NCBI GenBank assembly: GCA_951406725.2
Contig: OX597814.1
Span: 65,658,001-65,722,000 of the forward strand
Length of the DNA stretch: 64,000 bases
Direction: 5' to 3'
Source: Octopus vulgaris
Lineage: Eukaryota
Shown: positions 11,271-57,402 of the stretch, in pieces
How positions within the stretch are numbered: position 1 is the first letter of the stretch
Layout: each line of letters begins with the position of its first letter
Notes under the pieces: model-generated
The model's input: only the letters and a program-made list of their open reading frames with translations
Databases searched by the model: none
Told to the model about the DNA's origin: nothing
Position numbers and translations under genes: made by a program

Positions 11271-11307
11271 TGTTTTACGTTTCGAGCAAAGCACTTCTTC
11301 GAAAATA
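11271..11307 (-). ncRNA. Degenerate hammerhead-like motif related to 11600-11637
   Basis: Minus strand: UAUUU UCGAAGA aguGC uuu GCuc GAAAC GUA AAACA. The core is non-canonical. Confidence 0.35.
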
Positions 11308-11599
11308 GGAGCCACAATAAAGTCCAAAAGAAAAGGAAGAAGGAGGGAAAAATTGCCAACATTCCACGTGCAGTTACATACACACACTCATACATATATA
11401 CGTAAGAATCGCATGGAAATAAGTAGGTCCAATTCCTCACAGCGACATCCCATACTCTTTCGTAGCATACTCTAATTACATACACAATTACAAATAGGCT
11501 TATATATAAAGGGAAATTTTACGAAAATAAACAAAAAGCGAAGGCAAGTGGTGTACAAACAAACAGATGTATTAGTATAGCGCTCAGGAATAGAAAAAG

Positions 11600-11637
11600 T
11601 CTTTTACGTTTCGAGCCTACGCTCTTCTACAGAAAGA
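11600..11637 (-). ncRNA. Minimal hammerhead-like motif (A6U variant)
   Basis: Minus strand: UCUUU CUGUAGA a GAGC guag GCUC GAAAC GUA / AAAGA. Helix III palindrome ACGU. Confidence 0.55.
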
Positions 11638-12427: not shown

Positions 12428-12981
12428 ACTCTTTTACCTGTTTCAGTCATTTGACTGCGGCCATGTTGGAGCACCGCGTTTAGTCGAGCAAATCGACCCC
12501 AGGACTTATTCTTTGTAAGCCTAGTACTTATTCTATCGGTCTCTTTTGCAGAACCGCTAGGTTACGGGGACGTAAACACACCAGCATCTGTTCTCAAGCG
12601 ATGTTGGGGAAACAAACATAGACACACAAACATACACACACACACATACATACATATATATATATATATGTTTCCCCAACATCGCTTGACAACAGATGCT
12701 GGTGTGTTTACGTCCCCGTAACCTAGCGGTTCTGCAAAAGAGACCGATAGAATAAGTACTAGGCTTACGAAGAATAAGCCCTGGGATCGATTTGCTCGAC
12801 TAAACGCGGTGCTCCAACATATATACGACGGGCTTCTTTCTGTTTCCGTCTACCAAATCCTCTCACAAGACTTTGGTCGGCCCGGGGCTATAGTAGAAGA
12901 CACTTGCCCAAGGTGCCACGCAGTCGGACTGAACCCGGAACCATGTGGTTGGTAAGCAACCTACTTACTACACAGCTACTC

Positions 12982-22759: not shown

Positions 22760-25306
22760 AAAATAGTAAAAAGTGAAAAAACTACAGAAGGCTTAAAGGT
22801 TAAAAAATATATATATTTGAGTCAATATGTCTGAAGAATATTAAAAAAATTTTTCCTTACAATGACATAGTTTAGAAGAAAGACCGGTTTCGCGTTTAGC
22901 TTTTCAAATTTCTTACGACGTTATGTTTATGTTGAACAGAGTTATCGTTATGTTTATGTTTAAAAGAGTTCTAAATAAGGGGAGGTAATGAGTGATTTCT
23001 TCCGGTGTAAGGGAGATAATCGCTTAAATTTTTTTCCTTTCCCTTGGTGTGAATTTCTCTGTATCAGTATGTTGGCATGGTTAAGTCTGGGCTTGTACTT
23101 TTCAATGAAGAATGTTTCCTTGTTTAGTCTAATTTGTGTTGATGATCCGATAGCACATTGGTAGAATGGAAAGATTAAAAATTGTGGTAGTAGTTGCTTT
23201 GCGCATTTCTCAATGTGCTCACTAAAAGGTATCATTCTGTATTCTGGGAATGCAATCTGTTGTCGATGCAGTGTGCATCTACGTTTGAGTGATAGTCCTG
23301 TGGATCCCACGTAGTCTTGGTGTCAGCCCGAGCATTTTATGACATAAATTATGTTTTCAGAGGCACAAGTAAAGTTAGATTTGATCTTGAATTTCTGTCC
23401 CTCTTTAAAGAGGAATTCTGATCCTTCTAGCAGGTTTGGACATGTTGCACAGTTCAATCTACCACATTTTTTTACTTTTGCATCCGTAATTTCAGAAAAC
23501 AATTTTGCCTTTGTGAGAATCTTTTTGAGTGATTTAGGTTGTTTGTAGCTTTTAATGATTTGGTGTATGTTTAGAATTTCCTTTAATTTTGGGTCCTTAT
23601 GAAGTATTGGTAAATTCTGGGTGATGATGGTGAAGGCTTCTTTGTTTCTGGGGTTGTATGTAGATATATAAGGTAGTATTTTCGGGGAAGGTGTGTTGTT
23701 GTGTTGAACTTTTCTTAAAGTTTCTATGTTGATTTCTGTTGCACGTCTGATCCCATCCTCTATGAGTTGAGCTGGGTAATGTCTGTCAATTAGGGTGTTT
23801 TTGAGTTCTTGCAGTCTAAAGTTCCTGGTATTTTGTTCTGACACTATTGTGCATATCCTTCTTGCAAGGTTGAAGGGGATGTTTGTTTTAGTGTGTCTTG
23901 GGTGGCATGAATTAAAAAGAAGGTATTGTTTGGCGTCTGTGGCTTTGTAAAAAATGTCTGTTTCTATTTTAAGGTTAATTTTTTTAATTAGTATATCCAA
24001 GAACGGGAGCTCCTTTTGGTTGTATTCCATTGTGAACTGTATATTTGGGTTTATGCTGTTCAATAGGTTTTTAAATTTTAGGAGTTTATCTGTGTTTTCA
24101 TTCCAGAGTATAAAACAATCGTCTAAGAATCGTTTCCAATTCTCTTTTATGTATTGAGAAAGGGGGTTTCCAAAGATTGATAAAGATTCCTGGTAAATGA
24201 TTATGTCCATGTAGCCCATTGTTAGGTTCGCAATAACTGGTGCTGCCCTTGTACCCATAGCAATTCCGGATTTTTGACGGTAAAATGTATTGTCAAACAT
24301 GAAATGGTTATTATGTAGGATGAATTCAATTGATTTAGTAATGAATTCTTTACTGATCCTTTTGGTATTTCTTCCGGAAATTGGTCCAGCCAGAACTGTA
24401 TTGCCTCTAGTCCATAATTATGAGGTATACTGGTATATAAGTTAACTACATCAAATGAAACCAGGATTGTTTCTTCCTTGGCTTTTTTTGGAAGGTGGTT
24501 TAACATATCTAAGTCATCTCTGATATGGCTATCGATATGTTTAAGGAAGGGTTTCAGGAGGATGTCCATAAATAGACTTAGTCTGTGTGTTTCACAGGTT
24601 GGGCCAGCTACAATGGGTCGTAGTTTTAGGTCCCCCGGGTTAGGTGTGTGTATGTCTTTGGTGATTTTTTAATGGTTTCATTTATAATTTGGCTTTTATG
24701 AATTTTTGGCAGACCATAGAAGAGGCTAGGTTTGCATTTAAAGTTTGTTAGAAAGTCAATCTCTTTTTCATGGGTTTTAATTAGTGAAGATAGAGTTTTC
24801 ATTATTTTTTGTTGGGTGTAGTTGGTAATTTTTTCATAATGTAGGTCGTCATCAAGCAAGGAAATTACAAGATTTCTATAGTATGATGTATCCATTATTA
24901 CAACTGCATTTCCCTTGTCCGCTTCCTTAATGGTTATATCCTCATCATTTTGAAGTTCTATCAGTTCCTTCCATTGTGTAGTGTTAAAATTTGAGTTAAC
25001 TTTCTGTTTATGTATAGTATGGTAGGGAAAGTTCTCAATGTGGTTACAGAATTCATCAAGATCTTTATCTCTTCCTCTGTGTGGGATGTGTTCACTTTTG
25101 TTCTTGACTAGTGATTCATCTTCAGTATTGAAACTGGTTGATGCTTCTGCTAGTCTTAATTTTCTGCAAAATTCTGTTATATTATCCTTGATTTCATTTA
25201 GGTTGGCTCTGCGTGGAGTTGGTGTAAATTTGAGCCCTTTTGAGAGGATGTCAATTTTTATGTTAGAAAGAGGTTTGGTTGAAAGATTGATTATCTTCGG
25301 TTTTTC
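22760..25306 (-). mobile_element. Penelope-like retroelement (Neptune-like), near-complete but disrupted RT + GIY-YIG ORF
   Basis: Consecutive ORF pieces: INLS..LSKGLKFTPTP, ADKGNAVVIMD, FYGLPKIHK, SFDVVNLYTSIP, GIAMGTRAAP, WKRFLDDCF, LPFLDI, CGRLNCATC, NIIYVIKCSG*..YVGSTG. Two frameshifts and a stop. (TA)n on both sides. Confidence 0.92.
22876..22914 (-). ncRNA. Minimal type-I hammerhead ribozyme in the PLE 3' region (U3-A8 variant)
   Basis: Minus strand: AAGAAA u UUGAAAA GC uaaac GC GAAA CCGG UC / UUUCUU. 6-bp helix I, palindromic helix III (ACCGGU), GUC site. Confidence 0.75.
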
Positions 25307-25330
25307 TATATATATATATATATATATATA

Positions 25331-25900
25331 TGTTCTTTGACTTGCTTCAGTCATTTCAGTGCGGCCATGCTGGAGCACCGCCTTTAGTCGAGCAAATCGA
25401 CCCAGGACTTATTCTTTGTAAGCCTAGTACTTATTCTACCATTGTCTTATGTAGAACAGCTAAGTTGAGGGGACGTAAACATAGCAACATCAGTTGTCAA
25501 GCGTACCCGAAACCACGCGCCTTTGGGATATATATAGGTCATGAGTTCGATTCCCTGCAACGCGTTGTGTCCTTGAGCAAGACACTTTATTTCACCTTGC
25601 TCCAGTCTACTCAGCTGGCAAAACTGAGTTGTACCTGTATTTCAAATGGCCGGCTTTGTCACGCTCTATGTCACGCTGAATCTCCCTGAGAACTACGTTA
25701 GGGGTACACGTGTCTGTGGATTGCTTAGTCACCTGCACGTTAATTTCATGAGCAGGCCGTTCCGTTGATCGTATCAGCTGGGACCCTCGTCGTCATAAAC
25801 GACGGAGTGTTCCTTTATATCCCAAATCACCGCTTGACAATCAGGGTTGGTACGTTTATTTTCCCGTAACACAATAGTTCGGCAAAAGAAAATGTTAGAA
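25331..25900. mobile_element. Family A SINE fragment(s) with a different plus-strand SINE nested at ~25535-25810
   Basis: Family A tail at 25331-25503. B box gagttcgattccc and CORE-like tccttgagcaagacactt at 25542-25590. Confidence 0.7.
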
Positions 25901-35500: not shown

Positions 35501-36816
35501 TGTGTGAAGACCTTCATTCGAGTTCCAGGTTTCATAAAAGCAGATGTGACGAATTTTATTTGCCATTACCCTCCTTCGGAAGACTGTAGTATTGAGGCGT
35601 CACAACTACCAGTGGTTTCTTTTATAGAGACAACCAAGGCTAATGTACATTTTTCCTAGTGTGGTAGATTTATTCCCATGAAAATATTTTCTGTTTTTTT
35701 TTGTTCTGTAGATAAAATAAGTACCAGTTGAACATTGGGGTCGATGTAATCGACTCATCCCCTGTCCCCAAAATTGCTACTCTTATGGCAACATTTCAAA
35801 CCATTATTATTATTGTTTGTTTCTTTGCACAGCTTCTTAACGCTGAAGATATACTACGGTGTCAGCTGTTCACTATCAGGAGAGTAGTTCATGCCATTAA
35901 AATGACACTGGGATGAGATATACAAAGCCCAGTATGCCCATTATGACTACCCGTCGGATAAGGGTACACCAGACACATGCATCAGAGCCATATATGCATA
36001 TGATCTCACATCAAGAGACACAACGCATGGCCATGCAGGTGGGGATCAGCTTAAAAGGTCTCTGAATAAGGGTTGTTTAAGGAAGTTGGACAAAACAGCC
36101 ATGTTTCCGGAGGTGAATTATCCAAAACCCAAATAATTCCTCTCAACACATGGCTATGATCCTTCCCCACTACTTCTGATCGTGATCAGAGATGCACATA
36201 TTGACAGCCACTAAGGGACATGAGCTGACAGAATTGCTACTGTGCCGGACGAAAGGCTTAGCGTGATTTCTTTCGGCTTTAAGTTCCGAGTACAAATTCT
36301 TCCAGGCTGGGCATTGCCATTCATTCTTTCCGGGTCCTAACAATAAATGTCAGTTGAACACTGGGTTCATGTAAGTGGCAAGTTGAGGTCTACAATGCTT
36401 TTCAGCCTTTCGAAATCGATAAAATAATGTACTACCCAAGTATTTCATCAATATAATCGACTAAACCTTGCCCCTCAAAATGTCTAGACCCTGTGACTAA
36501 ATAAGAAACGATTACTATTATTTTTATGTTGTTCGTATTTACGCCTCGTACAGTTTCGAAAATATTTTATCTAATGTGTCCCTCCACCTTTTAGCCAGTT
36601 GAAGGTGATTTGAGTGAGATTTGGTCCCCATTACTAGATGTTCGAAATACGACGTTAATACAATTTTTTAGTCATGTTATTTATTGAAGTATTTGTGTAT
36701 TTGCATAATTGTTGAGGTTGTTGTTTGATGATGAATGAATATTTGTCACAAAATGTATCGAAAACATTAGAATTTGTTCTGGAAAAAATTATAAAAGTGA
36801 TGACATAAATACTCAC

Positions 36817-37058
36817 CTATAATAATCTTCCTTGCAGTAGAGGTTGCCGTTACGGGCGAAGCATGTTAAATAAGAATCGAGCCTCAACTTGCACTCACAG
36901 CATTTAAGACAAGAGGCATGCCACTGGCGCTCAGCAACCATCATATAATAGCGGTCCATTATACGCTTGCCGCAACTAGCGCATAGCCACATGCGAGAAG
37001 GAGATTCCAAAGAATCTGCCCGAAGATCTTTTGGACTGTCCGACATTCTGAACTGATC
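36817..37058 (-). CDS. Lhx2/9: Exon encoding LIM domain 1 of the Lhx2/Lhx9 (apterous) gene
   Basis: CASCGKRIMDRYYMMVAERQWHASCLKCCECKLRLDSYLTCFARNGNLYCKEDYY. Acceptor ttttgtttcag before 37058 and donor gtgagt at 36811-36816. The split codon AG|G gives KEDYYRRY as in LHX2 KEDYYRRF. Confidence 0.95.
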
Positions 37059-37899
37059 CTGAAACAAAAAATCATTACTAGAAATAACAAAGGGTCAAAC
37101 GAATGGCGAAAAACAACTTAACTAGAATTATTATTTACACCAAGTCTCAAAATTACTTGTTATCTTTCAGTTACAAGCTGAAGTAAAGTCGATTGAACAT
37201 GATATCTAACTATAACAAATGTCATAACATCATTACTATGTGTATTTATTTCGTCAAACATTCAAACTCGTGACGTTCCACTTTGCGCACTCTCATTACA
37301 GTATCCCGAAACAGTATGATGTGTGCTGAACTAGTTGGATAAAAAGGAACTTAACACTTTTACAAAAATGAAATTTCAGGTAACAGCATCTGGTCCAACA
37401 TTCCCCGATGCAAAGCAATTTAATCAGATAATAAATGTAGTTTTACCTCCAAATTTATGTATTTAAAAATAACTTCGCATCAGACAGTTTCTAGTTGACT
37501 AACTATATGACCAAATTTGACTTTTCTCTTCGATTTAATGAATAATATTTAATTTATAATGAACATAATCTAATCAATTATTGTTCTTGTTATATTCAAC
37601 CACAGTATTTTTGTTGTCTCACTTGAAAATATTACTAAATTTTCTTCAAATCACACACAGTCTATAAAAACGGAATGAGACATGAATGAACGTAGAATCT
37701 CCTCATTCATACATTTATATGAGGTCTACATTGTTTTGATTGTACTATTATCCGCGTCTCCAATGTGAAAGTATTTGTGTGTATATACTTGCATATTAGT
37801 ATCTGATTTTGCATGAGAGTGTATGCATACATGTGCATACACCTTTGGGTCTTTGACCAACCAATACCAGCAAACAAAACATCCGTTGATTTTACAATA

Positions 37900-51184: not shown

Positions 51185-51371
51185 CATATATATAAAAATT
51201 GAGATTGGGTTTGTAAAAGCAACCCTCCATGGGATAACATATATCCAATATACTGCTAGTGAAGTACCCAACAAAGTTAATACGTAAATGTTAATGATTG
51301 CGATGCAATTATTTCATTTCCTGTATTATATGGGCAAAGGTAAAATGATTTACCACAAATTACTAATACAT

Positions 51372-51457
51372 GATAAGAAAATGGAGAAATACATCTAAAT
51401 CAAATTTGATTTAGATAATTGATATTTGATTTAGATGTATTTCTCCATTTTCTTATC
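51372..51457. repeat. Nested palindrome (34-bp perfect arms; inner 24-bp perfect palindrome 51393-51416)
   Basis: gataagaaaatggagaaatacatctaaatcaaat versus atttgatttagatgtatttctccattttcttatc. Confidence 0.9.
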
Positions 51458-51460
51458 TTG

Positions 51461-51493
<33 letters not shown>

Positions 51494-52976: not shown

Positions 52977-53086
<110 letters not shown>

Positions 53087-53142
53087 TGTTGAGACCAGTA
53101 AGAAACAATTATGAACTTTTTTATTACACTTAACTTTTTAAA

Positions 53143-53195
53143 ATATTTTTGATAAGGTTCGTTTTTTTAAAGAAGAACCGAAACATGTAAAATTT
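53143..53195 (+). ncRNA. Type-I hammerhead ribozyme (U3-A8 variant)
   Basis: AUUU UUGAUAA GGUUC...GAACC GAAA CAUG UA / AAAU. 5-bp helix II, palindromic helix III ACAUGU. Confidence 0.72.
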
Positions 53196-53453
53196 CTAAG
53201 AAAATTAAAATTTATCTTAAATAGTGGCGTTTTCAAACTTCTTTTTTATAAATATATATATATATATATATACATACATATGTATATATATTTATATGTA
53301 CATATATATAAATATATATATATATATCTATATATACGTATAAGTATATAGACACATGTTTGTATATGTATATATATATATATGTATATATATATATTTA
53401 AAAAAAGAAGTTTGAAAAACGCCACTATATAAGATAAATTTTAATTTTGCTAG

Positions 53454-53505
53454 AAATTTTACATGTTTCGGTTCTTCTTGAAAAAACGAACCGTATCAAA
53501 AATAT
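53454..53505 (-). ncRNA. Inverted copy of the 53143 hammerhead (A9C substitution)
   Basis: Minus strand: AUUU UUGAUAC GGUUC...GAACC GAAACAUGUA AAAU. Confidence 0.6.
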
Positions 53506-53737
53506 TTGAAAATGTTAAGTGTAATAAAAAAGTTCGTAATTGTTTCTTACTAGTCTCAGCAGGATACACGTGGTTGTATCGTCTTTATGAACGTCTTTAT
53601 GCCCTTAACATATCTCTGTTACCAAACACTATATTTATACATGTAAGGTGACAATTATGTATAAAAAAACATTTTTGAATTCATAATATTCAATGTGACA
53701 ATTATGTAAAAACTTTTTGAACCCATAATATTCAATG

Positions 53738-54852: not shown

Positions 54853-54893
<41 letters not shown>

Positions 54894-54905
54894 ATTATAT
54901 AGAAG

Positions 54906-54958
54906 GAGCTTCTACAGGACTAGAACTGTTTCATTCAAGAGAAATCTTCAGGAAGCTC
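54906..54958 (-). ncRNA. Type-I hammerhead ribozyme, canonical core (copy 1)
   Basis: Minus strand: GAGCUUC CUGAAGA uUUC ucuu GAAu GAAA CAG uucuaguc CUG UA / GAAGCUC. 7-bp helix I, 4-bp helix III, GUA site. Confidence 0.85.
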
Positions 54959-55322
54959 TTTTTAGTCGGACCGACGGTTTATTTTCGAAATGGTCTTTGT
55001 GGTCTTTCAGGGTGAAGTGTGGGGACTTCACCCTCAGGGGTTCAGTTCGGTGGGAGCTTTTCATTTTCGAAAGTTTCTCATTCAGTTCCGTTTGGAAAGG
55101 TAGGTTGACTCTCCTGAATTTGATGTTTTTTATCATGAGGAAGAGGTCTTCTTCAAACGGTTCAAGTAGGCTGTTGGTAGGGGGGGCCCTATTTGATTTG
55201 AAGCCGTACTTATCATTATTGGTAGATGCTACATCAGGATGGTCGAAGAAGAAAGGGTACTGTTTCCTTGGTGGGATAGTAATGTTCTTCAGGGAAGTAT
55301 CGAGGTCGATTCTTGTCAGCAT
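54948..55322 (-). pseudogene. 124-codon ORF derived from internally deleted PLE ORF N-terminus
   Basis: SLKNITIP, YGFKS..PP, FEEDL..MIKNIKFR..FQ..L and TLKDHKDHFENKP.VRL are motifs I recognise from PLE N-terminal/pre-RT regions. Confidence 0.65.
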
Positions 55323-55452
55323 TTTTCTTGGTGATGGTTATAAGGGCACTGGGGTGTGCTAGGATATGTAGGTCCCGGGTTGATTCGGGGTTAACCACAG
55401 TAAATAAGGTACTCAATACATAGCAGAGTAAAATTAATTTATTATATAGAAG

Positions 55453-55505
55453 GAGCTTCTACAGGACTAGAACTGTTTCATTCAAGAGAAATCTTCAGGA
55501 AGCTC
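55453..55505 (-). ncRNA. Type-I hammerhead ribozyme (copy 2, identical)
   Basis: Same sequence as 54906-54958, offset by 547 nt. Confidence 0.85.
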
Positions 55506-55509
55506 TTCT

Positions 55510-55562
55510 GAGCTTCCTGAAGATTTCTCTTGAATGAAACAGTTCTAGTCCTGTAGAAGCTC
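55510..55562 (+). ncRNA. Type-I hammerhead ribozyme (copy 3, opposite strand)
   Basis: gagcttc CTGAAGA tttctcttgaat GAAA cag ttctagtc ctg TA gaagctc, read directly on the plus strand. Confidence 0.85.
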
Positions 55563-55642
55563 CTTCTATATAATAAATTAATTTTACTCTGCTATGTATT
55601 GAGTACCTTATTTACTGTGGTTAACTCCGAATCAACCCGGGA

Positions 55643-55698
<56 letters not shown>

Positions 55699-57133: not shown

Positions 57134-57168
<35 letters not shown>

Positions 57169-57193
57169 CTTTATTTAAAAGCAGCAGAAATTC

Positions 57194-57246
57194 AACAAAA
57201 CCTGTTACTCGGAGTTTCAGGTTCCCGTTCGTCGGACAGTTTTGTT
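57194..57246 (-). ncRNA. Hammerhead-like ribozyme (U4C variant), left arm of palindrome
   Basis: Minus strand: AACAAAACUGU CCGACGA acGGgaaCCu GAAA CUC c GAG UA / ACAGgUUUUGUU. 11-bp helix I with one bulge. Confidence 0.65.
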
Positions 57247-57253
57247 CGGACAG

Positions 57254-57306
57254 AACAAAACTGTCCGACGAACGGAAACATGAAACTCCGAGTAACAGGT
57301 TTTGTT
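57254..57306 (+). ncRNA. Hammerhead-like ribozyme (U4C variant), right arm of palindrome
   Basis: aacaaaactgt CCGACGA acggaaacat GAAA ctc c gag TA acaggttttgtt. Confidence 0.6.
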
Positions 57307-57402
57307 GAATTTCTGCTGCTTTTAAATAAATCATATTACTCTACCACTGGTATTTGAGTACTCTTCTTTCCACCTTGTTTCACATTTATGTGTTTACTCC
57401 GG

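Follow-up and report, generated by a model that had tools for sequence, protein, structure and literature searches.

A stretch of 64,000 nucleotides of the Octopus vulgaris genome, called the window below, contains at 55369-55646 a palindrome whose two arms carry the same hammerhead ribozyme (HHR) motif on opposite strands, and the point at which the sequence folds back on itself lies at the start of helix I of the ribozyme. Why a palindrome should turn at this very position is the question raised by the locus. The initial annotation offered two answers, namely that the long hairpin sequesters the ribozyme as an off switch or that it records a template switch begun at the ribozyme, and it pointed to both the inverted pseudo-LTRs (pLTRs) of Penelope-like elements (PLEs) and viroid-like RNAs with ribozymes in both polarities. 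We find that a broken Penelope-type element ends here in a mirrored copy, which makes up the palindrome and is a known by-product of the insertion of such elements, and that the fold-back point most likely marks the start of the element RNA rather than a built-in ribozyme switch.

The palindrome and its hammerhead motifs

Realignment of the arms reproduced the annotated geometry: two arms of 137 bp, which differ at a single position (55389 G / 55626 T), are separated by a 4-nt spacer (Table 1). Both arms open with the first base of helix I, which places the fold-back at the start of the ribozyme as had been claimed. The folded palindrome has a predicted energy of -250 kcal/mol (z = -40), a value reached by none of 200 shuffled sequences. 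In other copies of the family, found in contigs assembled from sequencing runs, the junction spacers are 2-5 nt shorter than the TTCT of this locus.

A descriptor scan detected on both arms the core of a type I HHR (CUGAAGA...GAAA...GUA). The descriptor matched five times in the 64-kb window and not once in any of 12 control sequences. A third copy, overlooked in the initial annotation, is 98.6% identical and has the same sense as the left arm. By sequence and fold prediction, the motif possesses the conserved core, the three helices and the NUH triplet of type I hammerheads, and its helix III is a real helix of 4 bp with an 8-nt loop. The predicted fold is weak (-10.2 kcal/mol), and a U...U is found at the base of helix II instead of the G10.1-C11.1 pair. 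Related loci supplied 42 distinct cores, of which 16 have the same U...U, which argues for a variant of the clade rather than decay; the CAG...CTG helix III of the motif recurs in 13 of the 42. No Rfam hammerhead model matched the motif, at gathering score or at E<10; what ranked highest in Rfam were generic models of miRNA hairpins, and these stayed below gathering score. The assignment thus rests on the descriptor and on the relatives, and we identify the motif as a type I hammerhead, with self-cleavage predicted. The minimal HHRs of metazoan PLEs, as described in the available portion of Cervera and de la Pena (2014, PMC4209133), are likewise type I, lie in pLTRs and belong mostly to truncated copies; the present motif differs from them by its helix III with its loop and by the U-U at the base of helix II. 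The opposite-strand HHR pairs of Schistosoma described there are about 100-700 bp apart, in contrast to the 4 nt here.

Table 1. Positions of the palindrome, the surrounding element and a second palindrome in the window
Feature	Position	Strand	Remarks
(TA)n flank, left	54856-54890		both element ends run into (TA)n
Third HHR copy (downstream pLTR)	54888-54960	-	begins 2-5 nt before helix I; ends at the family's inner 3' terminus (55437-equivalent)
N-terminal fragment of Hydra-like PLE ORF	54963-55322	-	124-aa ORF
Upstream pLTR (HHR and tail) of the main body	55369-55505	-	from arm alignment
Type I HHR, copy 2	55453-55505	-	cleavage-site A 55460
Head-to-head junction spacer TTCT	55506-55509		4 nt; from arm alignment
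Inverted 5'-truncated pLTR copy (HHR and downstream tail)	55510-55646	+	stops at the family's outer 3' terminus
Type I HHR, copy 1	55510-55562	+	helix I 55510-16/55556-62; core from 55517; cleavage-site A 55555
(TA)n flank, right	55647-55684		both element ends run into (TA)n
Second head-to-head palindrome, HHR-like motif	57164-57336		core CCGACGA; 5-nt spacer 57248-57252

The parent element and its termini

The palindrome forms one end of an element of about 760 bp, inserted in (TA)n and laid out as an inverted pLTR, a pLTR, a deleted ORF start and a further pLTR. The ORF fragment matches the N-terminus of PLE proteins of about 700 aa (E 7.5e-12, 41-46% identity), which bear a YRDD RT and a C-terminal nuclease region; the closest named protein is from Octopus vulgaris and is 83% identical over the aligned part. 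The match is interrupted twice in frame, 18 aa being absent at 55255/56 and 58 aa at 55051/52, and everything past about residue 200 is missing, that is the rest of the RT and the endonuclease. Contigs from other copies carry different letters at both gaps, with 54 nt at the first. Splicing was considered for these gaps and rejected, the loose ends showing by eye no GT-AG. Pfam searches yielded nothing in the ORF fragment and no relevant family in five relatives. Four relatives (P0001-P0004) carry RWK, DKT and a CxCX5C linker, and all three positions fall in parts deleted here; at the first of these motifs, loose ends of the family read RWR when the contigs were read by hand. These motifs define the Hydra clade (Craig et al. 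2021, PMC8557442), and the Hydra proteins in the supplement of that paper, as far as it was available, share them with the matched proteins of about 700 aa.

The homology of the ORF, limited to its N-terminal fragment, and the partial-tandem pLTRs with an adjacent inverted 5'-truncated copy and a one-sided tail are those of endonuclease-bearing (EN+) PLEs, while the presence of an HHR and the insertion into (TA)n are those of the Hydra clade. The same layout and (TA)n targets are described as typical of PLEs in the accessible text of PMC8557442. On these sequence features we assign the element to a Hydra-like clade of endonuclease-bearing PLEs, as a dead insertion; the window holds no core RT. 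The closest known systems are Hydra-1_Obim and other Hydra-clade C-terminal EN+ PLEs, which, as presented in the same source, share the N-terminal ORF motifs, the HHR in the pLTR and the (TA)n target, as well as the partial tandem with an adjacent inverted 5'-truncated copy and a tail at one end only. The HHR sequence of Hydra-1_Obim differs, making the element of the window a different family. It is a new family member with a known PLE structure, to which it adds a modest and testable mechanistic detail, and the palindrome itself is ordinary PLE debris.

To survey the breakpoints of other copies, 4 of 24 sequencing runs (contigs of X1, X2 and X5, raw reads of X22) were aligned to 54930-55540; all counts from this survey refer to the matches listed, beside which stand a further 2970 records and 57 loose-end rows. 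Among the matches listed, 37, 16 and 2 contigs of X1, X2 and X5, respectively, pass from the family into (TA)n at 55364, and 14 contigs of X2 do so at a second terminus at 55437. The right end of the element lies within 5 nt of the 55364 terminus and its left end matches the 55437 terminus. Layout and family termini together support the suggestion of an inverted PLE pseudo-LTR made in the initial annotation. The two termini are about 73 nt apart, compared with a tail of 30-40 bp in the Hydra-clade PLEs of PMC8557442. The summed contig depth of the HHR and tail relative to the ORF was 143x, 1148x and 183x in X1, X2 and X5, ratios that are not copy numbers.

The viroid-like reading, which would call for a circular RNA replicon that has no DNA insertion stage, is not supported: the locus is inserted in the genome, lies between (TA)n flanks and includes part of a PLE ORF, and exact matches to the HHR numbered zero in viral_contigs. 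We also considered the non-LTR retrozymes (Li et al. 2026, bioRxiv 10.64898/2026.07.22.740005), which are likewise PLE-derived, non-coding and equipped with a type I HHR. The 547-bp unit between HHRs in the window would be excisable in principle, as in those elements. Retrozymes are defined in the available part of that preprint as tandem repeats of at least two consecutive HHR units; the locus holds a single 547-bp unit, with no tandem array and no sign of the unit being multicopy, and we rejected this assignment.

Breakpoints, upstream TATA and the probable start of the element RNA

Head-to-head junctions equivalent to that of the locus were found in other copies. Runs X1 and X2 contain at least four near-symmetric junctions (depths 221.5, 43.5, 14.9 and 8.9), one record of which spans 55457-55537, and at least four asymmetric ones, in which 55406, 55421, 55443 and 55472 are each joined to 55505-55511. 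In all eight head-to-head junctions listed, from two runs, one partner at least starts at the 5' edge of helix I (55505-55511). None of the junctions listed has the cleavage site as partner start, the nearest partners being 12 and 17 nt away, and we rejected the cleavage site as the breakpoint. Of the inverted arm, 31 nt were included in the surveyed stretch, and the joint classes 'left out' and 'skip' can therefore display only junctions that have a partner at the edge of helix I. The sides of the skip joints measure 21-29 nt, a short length that makes this class less reliable. Opposite-strand joints, a detection class of uncertain sensitivity, gave no contig rows; in X22, four of the five reads carry an opposite-strand joint at other positions (55418/55470).

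Within the window, the three HHR copies start 0-5 nt before helix I, and an unrelated palindrome behaves in the same way: the fold-back of the second head-to-head palindrome (Table 1) coincides with the 5' edge of the extended helix I of its motif, which is 77% identical over 44 nt to the HHR of two related loci (L001 and L002, E 0.004). Taken together, the three copies, the eight junctions listed and this palindrome indicate that the breakpoints are not random with respect to the HHR. In the second palindrome, both arms have a C at core position 4 and the spacer repeats part of the motif. Among related loci, two of six informative 5' boundaries lie near helix I and the others at -53, -115, -159 and -699, boundaries at contig ends being excluded and the L065 pair dropped as an indel artefact that runs to the contig end. 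The single inverted copy among these loci has its boundary at -115 (4 contigs), away from helix I, and the 76 related loci, a set selected for long ORFs, yielded no palindrome with head-to-head arms at helix I. We found no report of PLE inversion points at helix I in the mostly open-access literature searched; the accessible text of PMC8557442 describes neither inversion points nor a TATA at this position.

The junction of the locus itself, with its TTCT spacer, is absent from the reads and contigs listed for the four runs aligned to 54930-55540, where equivalent fold-backs occur with other spacers. A chimeric fold-back made during assembly or library preparation would account for this absence, and even in the best run the share of sampled words present is 0.60. 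Such an artefact is hardly credible, however: the arms differ at one base, the inverted arm ends at a natural terminus of the family, equivalent junctions at depths of 8.9-221.5 occur in two runs of different studies, and the layout is the published PLE layout.

In other copies of the family, sequences continue upstream of helix I (21 contigs of X1 among the matches listed). A TATAAAT lies 28 nt before helix I, by hand count, in three divergent upstream sequences among the loose ends listed (21, 2 and 1 contigs, with agreement of 0.69, 0.82 and 1). In the 76 related loci, 11 of 38 non-redundant HHR contexts have a TATA-like motif 33-45 nt before the core; shuffled sequences gave a mean of 3.7, with none of 1000 reaching 11, and six control windows gave 0-7. 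The remaining 27 contexts lack a TATA, and several of them resemble a 3' splice site instead. The upstream copies of L023 and L026, which belong to one family, begin 4 and 6 nt before helix I, that of L026 lying 31/29 nt past the TATA. The copy that forms the palindrome has itself no upstream TATA. The TATA 28 nt upstream in other copies and the TATA spacing and copy starts in relatives suggest that the element RNA probably starts at about helix I, a position read from sequence.

We propose that transcription would start at about helix I from a promoter with its TATA 28 nt upstream, which would make the HHR the 5'-terminal structure of the element RNA. Once the (TA)n target is cut, each of its strands would prime the RT, which would begin at about 70 or 140 nt of the RNA and copy until the template runs out at its 5' end. 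The 3' ends of both cDNAs would then be joined head to head, with a few bases that vary from joint to joint. On the left side, the cDNA may have jumped into the ORF from an RNA 5' end before it was complete; alternatively, the gaps in the ORF may be later deletions. The hairpin and its buried ribozyme would be by-products. We give this model as a whole, two run-off cDNAs in a dead Hydra-like PLE insertion, a probability of about 0.68. It predicts many very short copies, in keeping with the depth ratios given above. Against it count the contigs of X1 that continue upstream of helix I, the second partners of the four asymmetric junctions, the joint at other positions in X22, the boundaries of relatives away from helix I and the contexts that lack a TATA. 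In vitro, a PLE protein cuts and extends both target strands, the RT starts internally at two sites and HHR cleavage is dispensable for insertion (Frangieh et al. 2024, PMC11167929, available portion). The element studied there, PAc Poseidon, resembles ours in these points, its two RT starts defining the tail; its HHR overlaps the start codon and its RT starts lie inside the ORF, whereas both termini of the present family lie in the 5' UTR. The portion of that paper available to us gives no account of 5' junctions or inversions. If the RNA of TATA-type Hydra elements does begin directly with the HHR, three observations would find a common explanation: that the fold-back point is fixed, that HHR copies of 70 and 140 bp are in excess and that breakpoints are lacking at the cleavage site. 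The finding bears on the origin of the tandem and inverted ends of PLEs and on the role of their hammerheads.

The breakpoint position would also fit a PLE origin in which the RT stalled or switched template at the ribozyme structure, or in which helix I marks a 3' splice site. Splicing would agree with the intron of Drosophila virilis Penelope, which ends at the 5' end of helix I (PMC4209133, available portion), with the pyrimidine tract and CAG present at helix I in several relatives and with one upstream variant of the window's family that by eye ends in a pyrimidine tract and YAG. However, a stop caused by structure would be expected at 55453, not 55505, because the RT would reach helix I from its 3' strand, and the HHR fold is weak; the AG is retained in the junctions rather than spliced at, and the TATA spacing is conserved in three variants. 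We regard a stall, switch or splice site as unlikely. The annotated template switch that began at the ribozyme is thus consistent in position, but the RNA 5' end is judged its likelier cause. The relatives with a pyrimidine tract and CAG in place of the TATA are L013, L016, L033, L041, L044 and L051, a subgroup that resembles the intron end of D. virilis Penelope; the latter has a TATA-less promoter and an intron 46 nt past the start (PMC2377424, available portion), which speaks against the generality of a TATA-driven start at helix I.

A single cDNA that folds back at its end and is then copied would produce nearly identical arms around a spacer of merely 4 nt. Palindromes at inverted junctions were read in this way, as self-priming on an antisense template, for the Penelope of Adineta vaga (Arkhipova et al. 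2013, PMC3846280). That element shares with ours two direct pLTRs and an inverted one, junction palindromes, TATA/Inr in the pLTR and internal deletions; it differs by its visible TSDs, which are not seen at the element of the window, and the available text does not mention an HHR. Against such self-priming, the inverted arm halts at the 3' terminus of the family although the supposed template runs 400 nt further, and asymmetric junctions with unequal arms occur. We hold it to be quite improbable, and retain the joining of two run-off cDNAs.

The buried ribozyme, A>G differences and other features of the window

A transcript across the palindrome would bury the ribozyme: within the hairpin, the predicted pair probability of helix I is about 1e-55. 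To this extent the off switch proposed in the initial annotation is physically sound, yet nothing seen points to a function. We read the hairpin as a by-product, since deletions have broken the copy, the upstream TATA is missing from it and many other spacers occur at such junctions. That it was instead selected, being kept to silence the ribozyme or to feed ADAR or Dicer, is very improbable. For this proposal speak the abolished folding of the HHR in silico, the wealth of dsRNA-forming repeats and editing in Octopus with the massive editing of a lizard Penelope element (PMC5625713, available portion), three A>G differences confined to run X5, and the presence, at distances of 18 and 53 kb, of LIM-domain exons that share the strand of the element. 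Against it, spacers vary and the copy is itself broken; the HHRs of metazoan PLEs cleave poorly and as dimers (PMC4209133, available portion), cleavage can be dispensed with in vitro (PMC11167929, available portion), and no A>G is listed on the antisense arm, contrary to what a symmetric hairpin would lead one to expect.

The exons are two LIM-domain exons of a LIM-homeobox-like gene (36813-37094 and 1714-2226, minus), which we take to be of Lhx2/9 type. They lie on the same strand as the element, which makes read-through of the element possible.

The three A>G differences lie at 55457, 55460 and 55468 on the HHR-sense strand, one of them being the cleavage-site base, and are found only in X5, a run guessed to be RNA, none of the 24 runs being recorded as such. 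They reach 9.6%, 8.5% and 18.9% of depth, versus at most 0.11% in X1 and X2, and are the only X5-specific differences listed; no A>G is among the differences listed in X5 for the antisense arm. Against editing, the three are much alike in depth, as would be the case if they formed a single genomic haplotype. All three sites are followed by G, and the ADAR group of invertebrates prefers A downstream, not G (PMC5625713, available portion). An argument for editing from the UAG context (two of two UAG hit; 0.0005 for three random As all in UAG or AAG) was post hoc and is weakened by this preference, and we set it aside. The claim of an ADAR substrate is thereby reduced to a weak lead at the level of the family. 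It is doubtful, but conceivable, that abundant HHR-headed PLE micro-copies are transcribed and ADAR-edited on the sense strand, the edited positions being the cleavage-site A (GUA becoming GUI), one in helix I and one in loop III, through which dimers form, with head-to-head copies supplying the dsRNA. Inosine at the cleavage site slowed an engineered HHR about 30-fold (PMC3923133, available portion). If true, this would be natural host RNA editing slowing a retroelement ribozyme, for which we found no report concerning a PLE hammerhead in the mostly open-access literature searched; such a lead would matter more than the palindrome, but it is weak.

Several other features of the window and of related loci were noted. 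A frameshifted remnant at 22960-25408 (minus) resembles, by eye, another Penelope-like RT-endonuclease ORF, two pieces of which gave no Pfam match when tested. At 11632 (minus) lies a single minimal HHR-like motif with one core mismatch, accompanied by a weak second copy near 11273-11352. One related locus (L007, 711-904) shows another kind of inversion, in which the two arms of the repeat lie on either side of a single HHR and the loop contains the ribozyme. An inverted repeat (86%) at 53082-53566 surrounds a microsatellite centre, and its arms consist of a hairpin followed by GAAACATGTA, resembling a decayed inward-facing HHR. Fold-backs are common in the window, with further short-spacer palindromes from other repeats at 12463-12820, 1241-1511 and 51366-51463.
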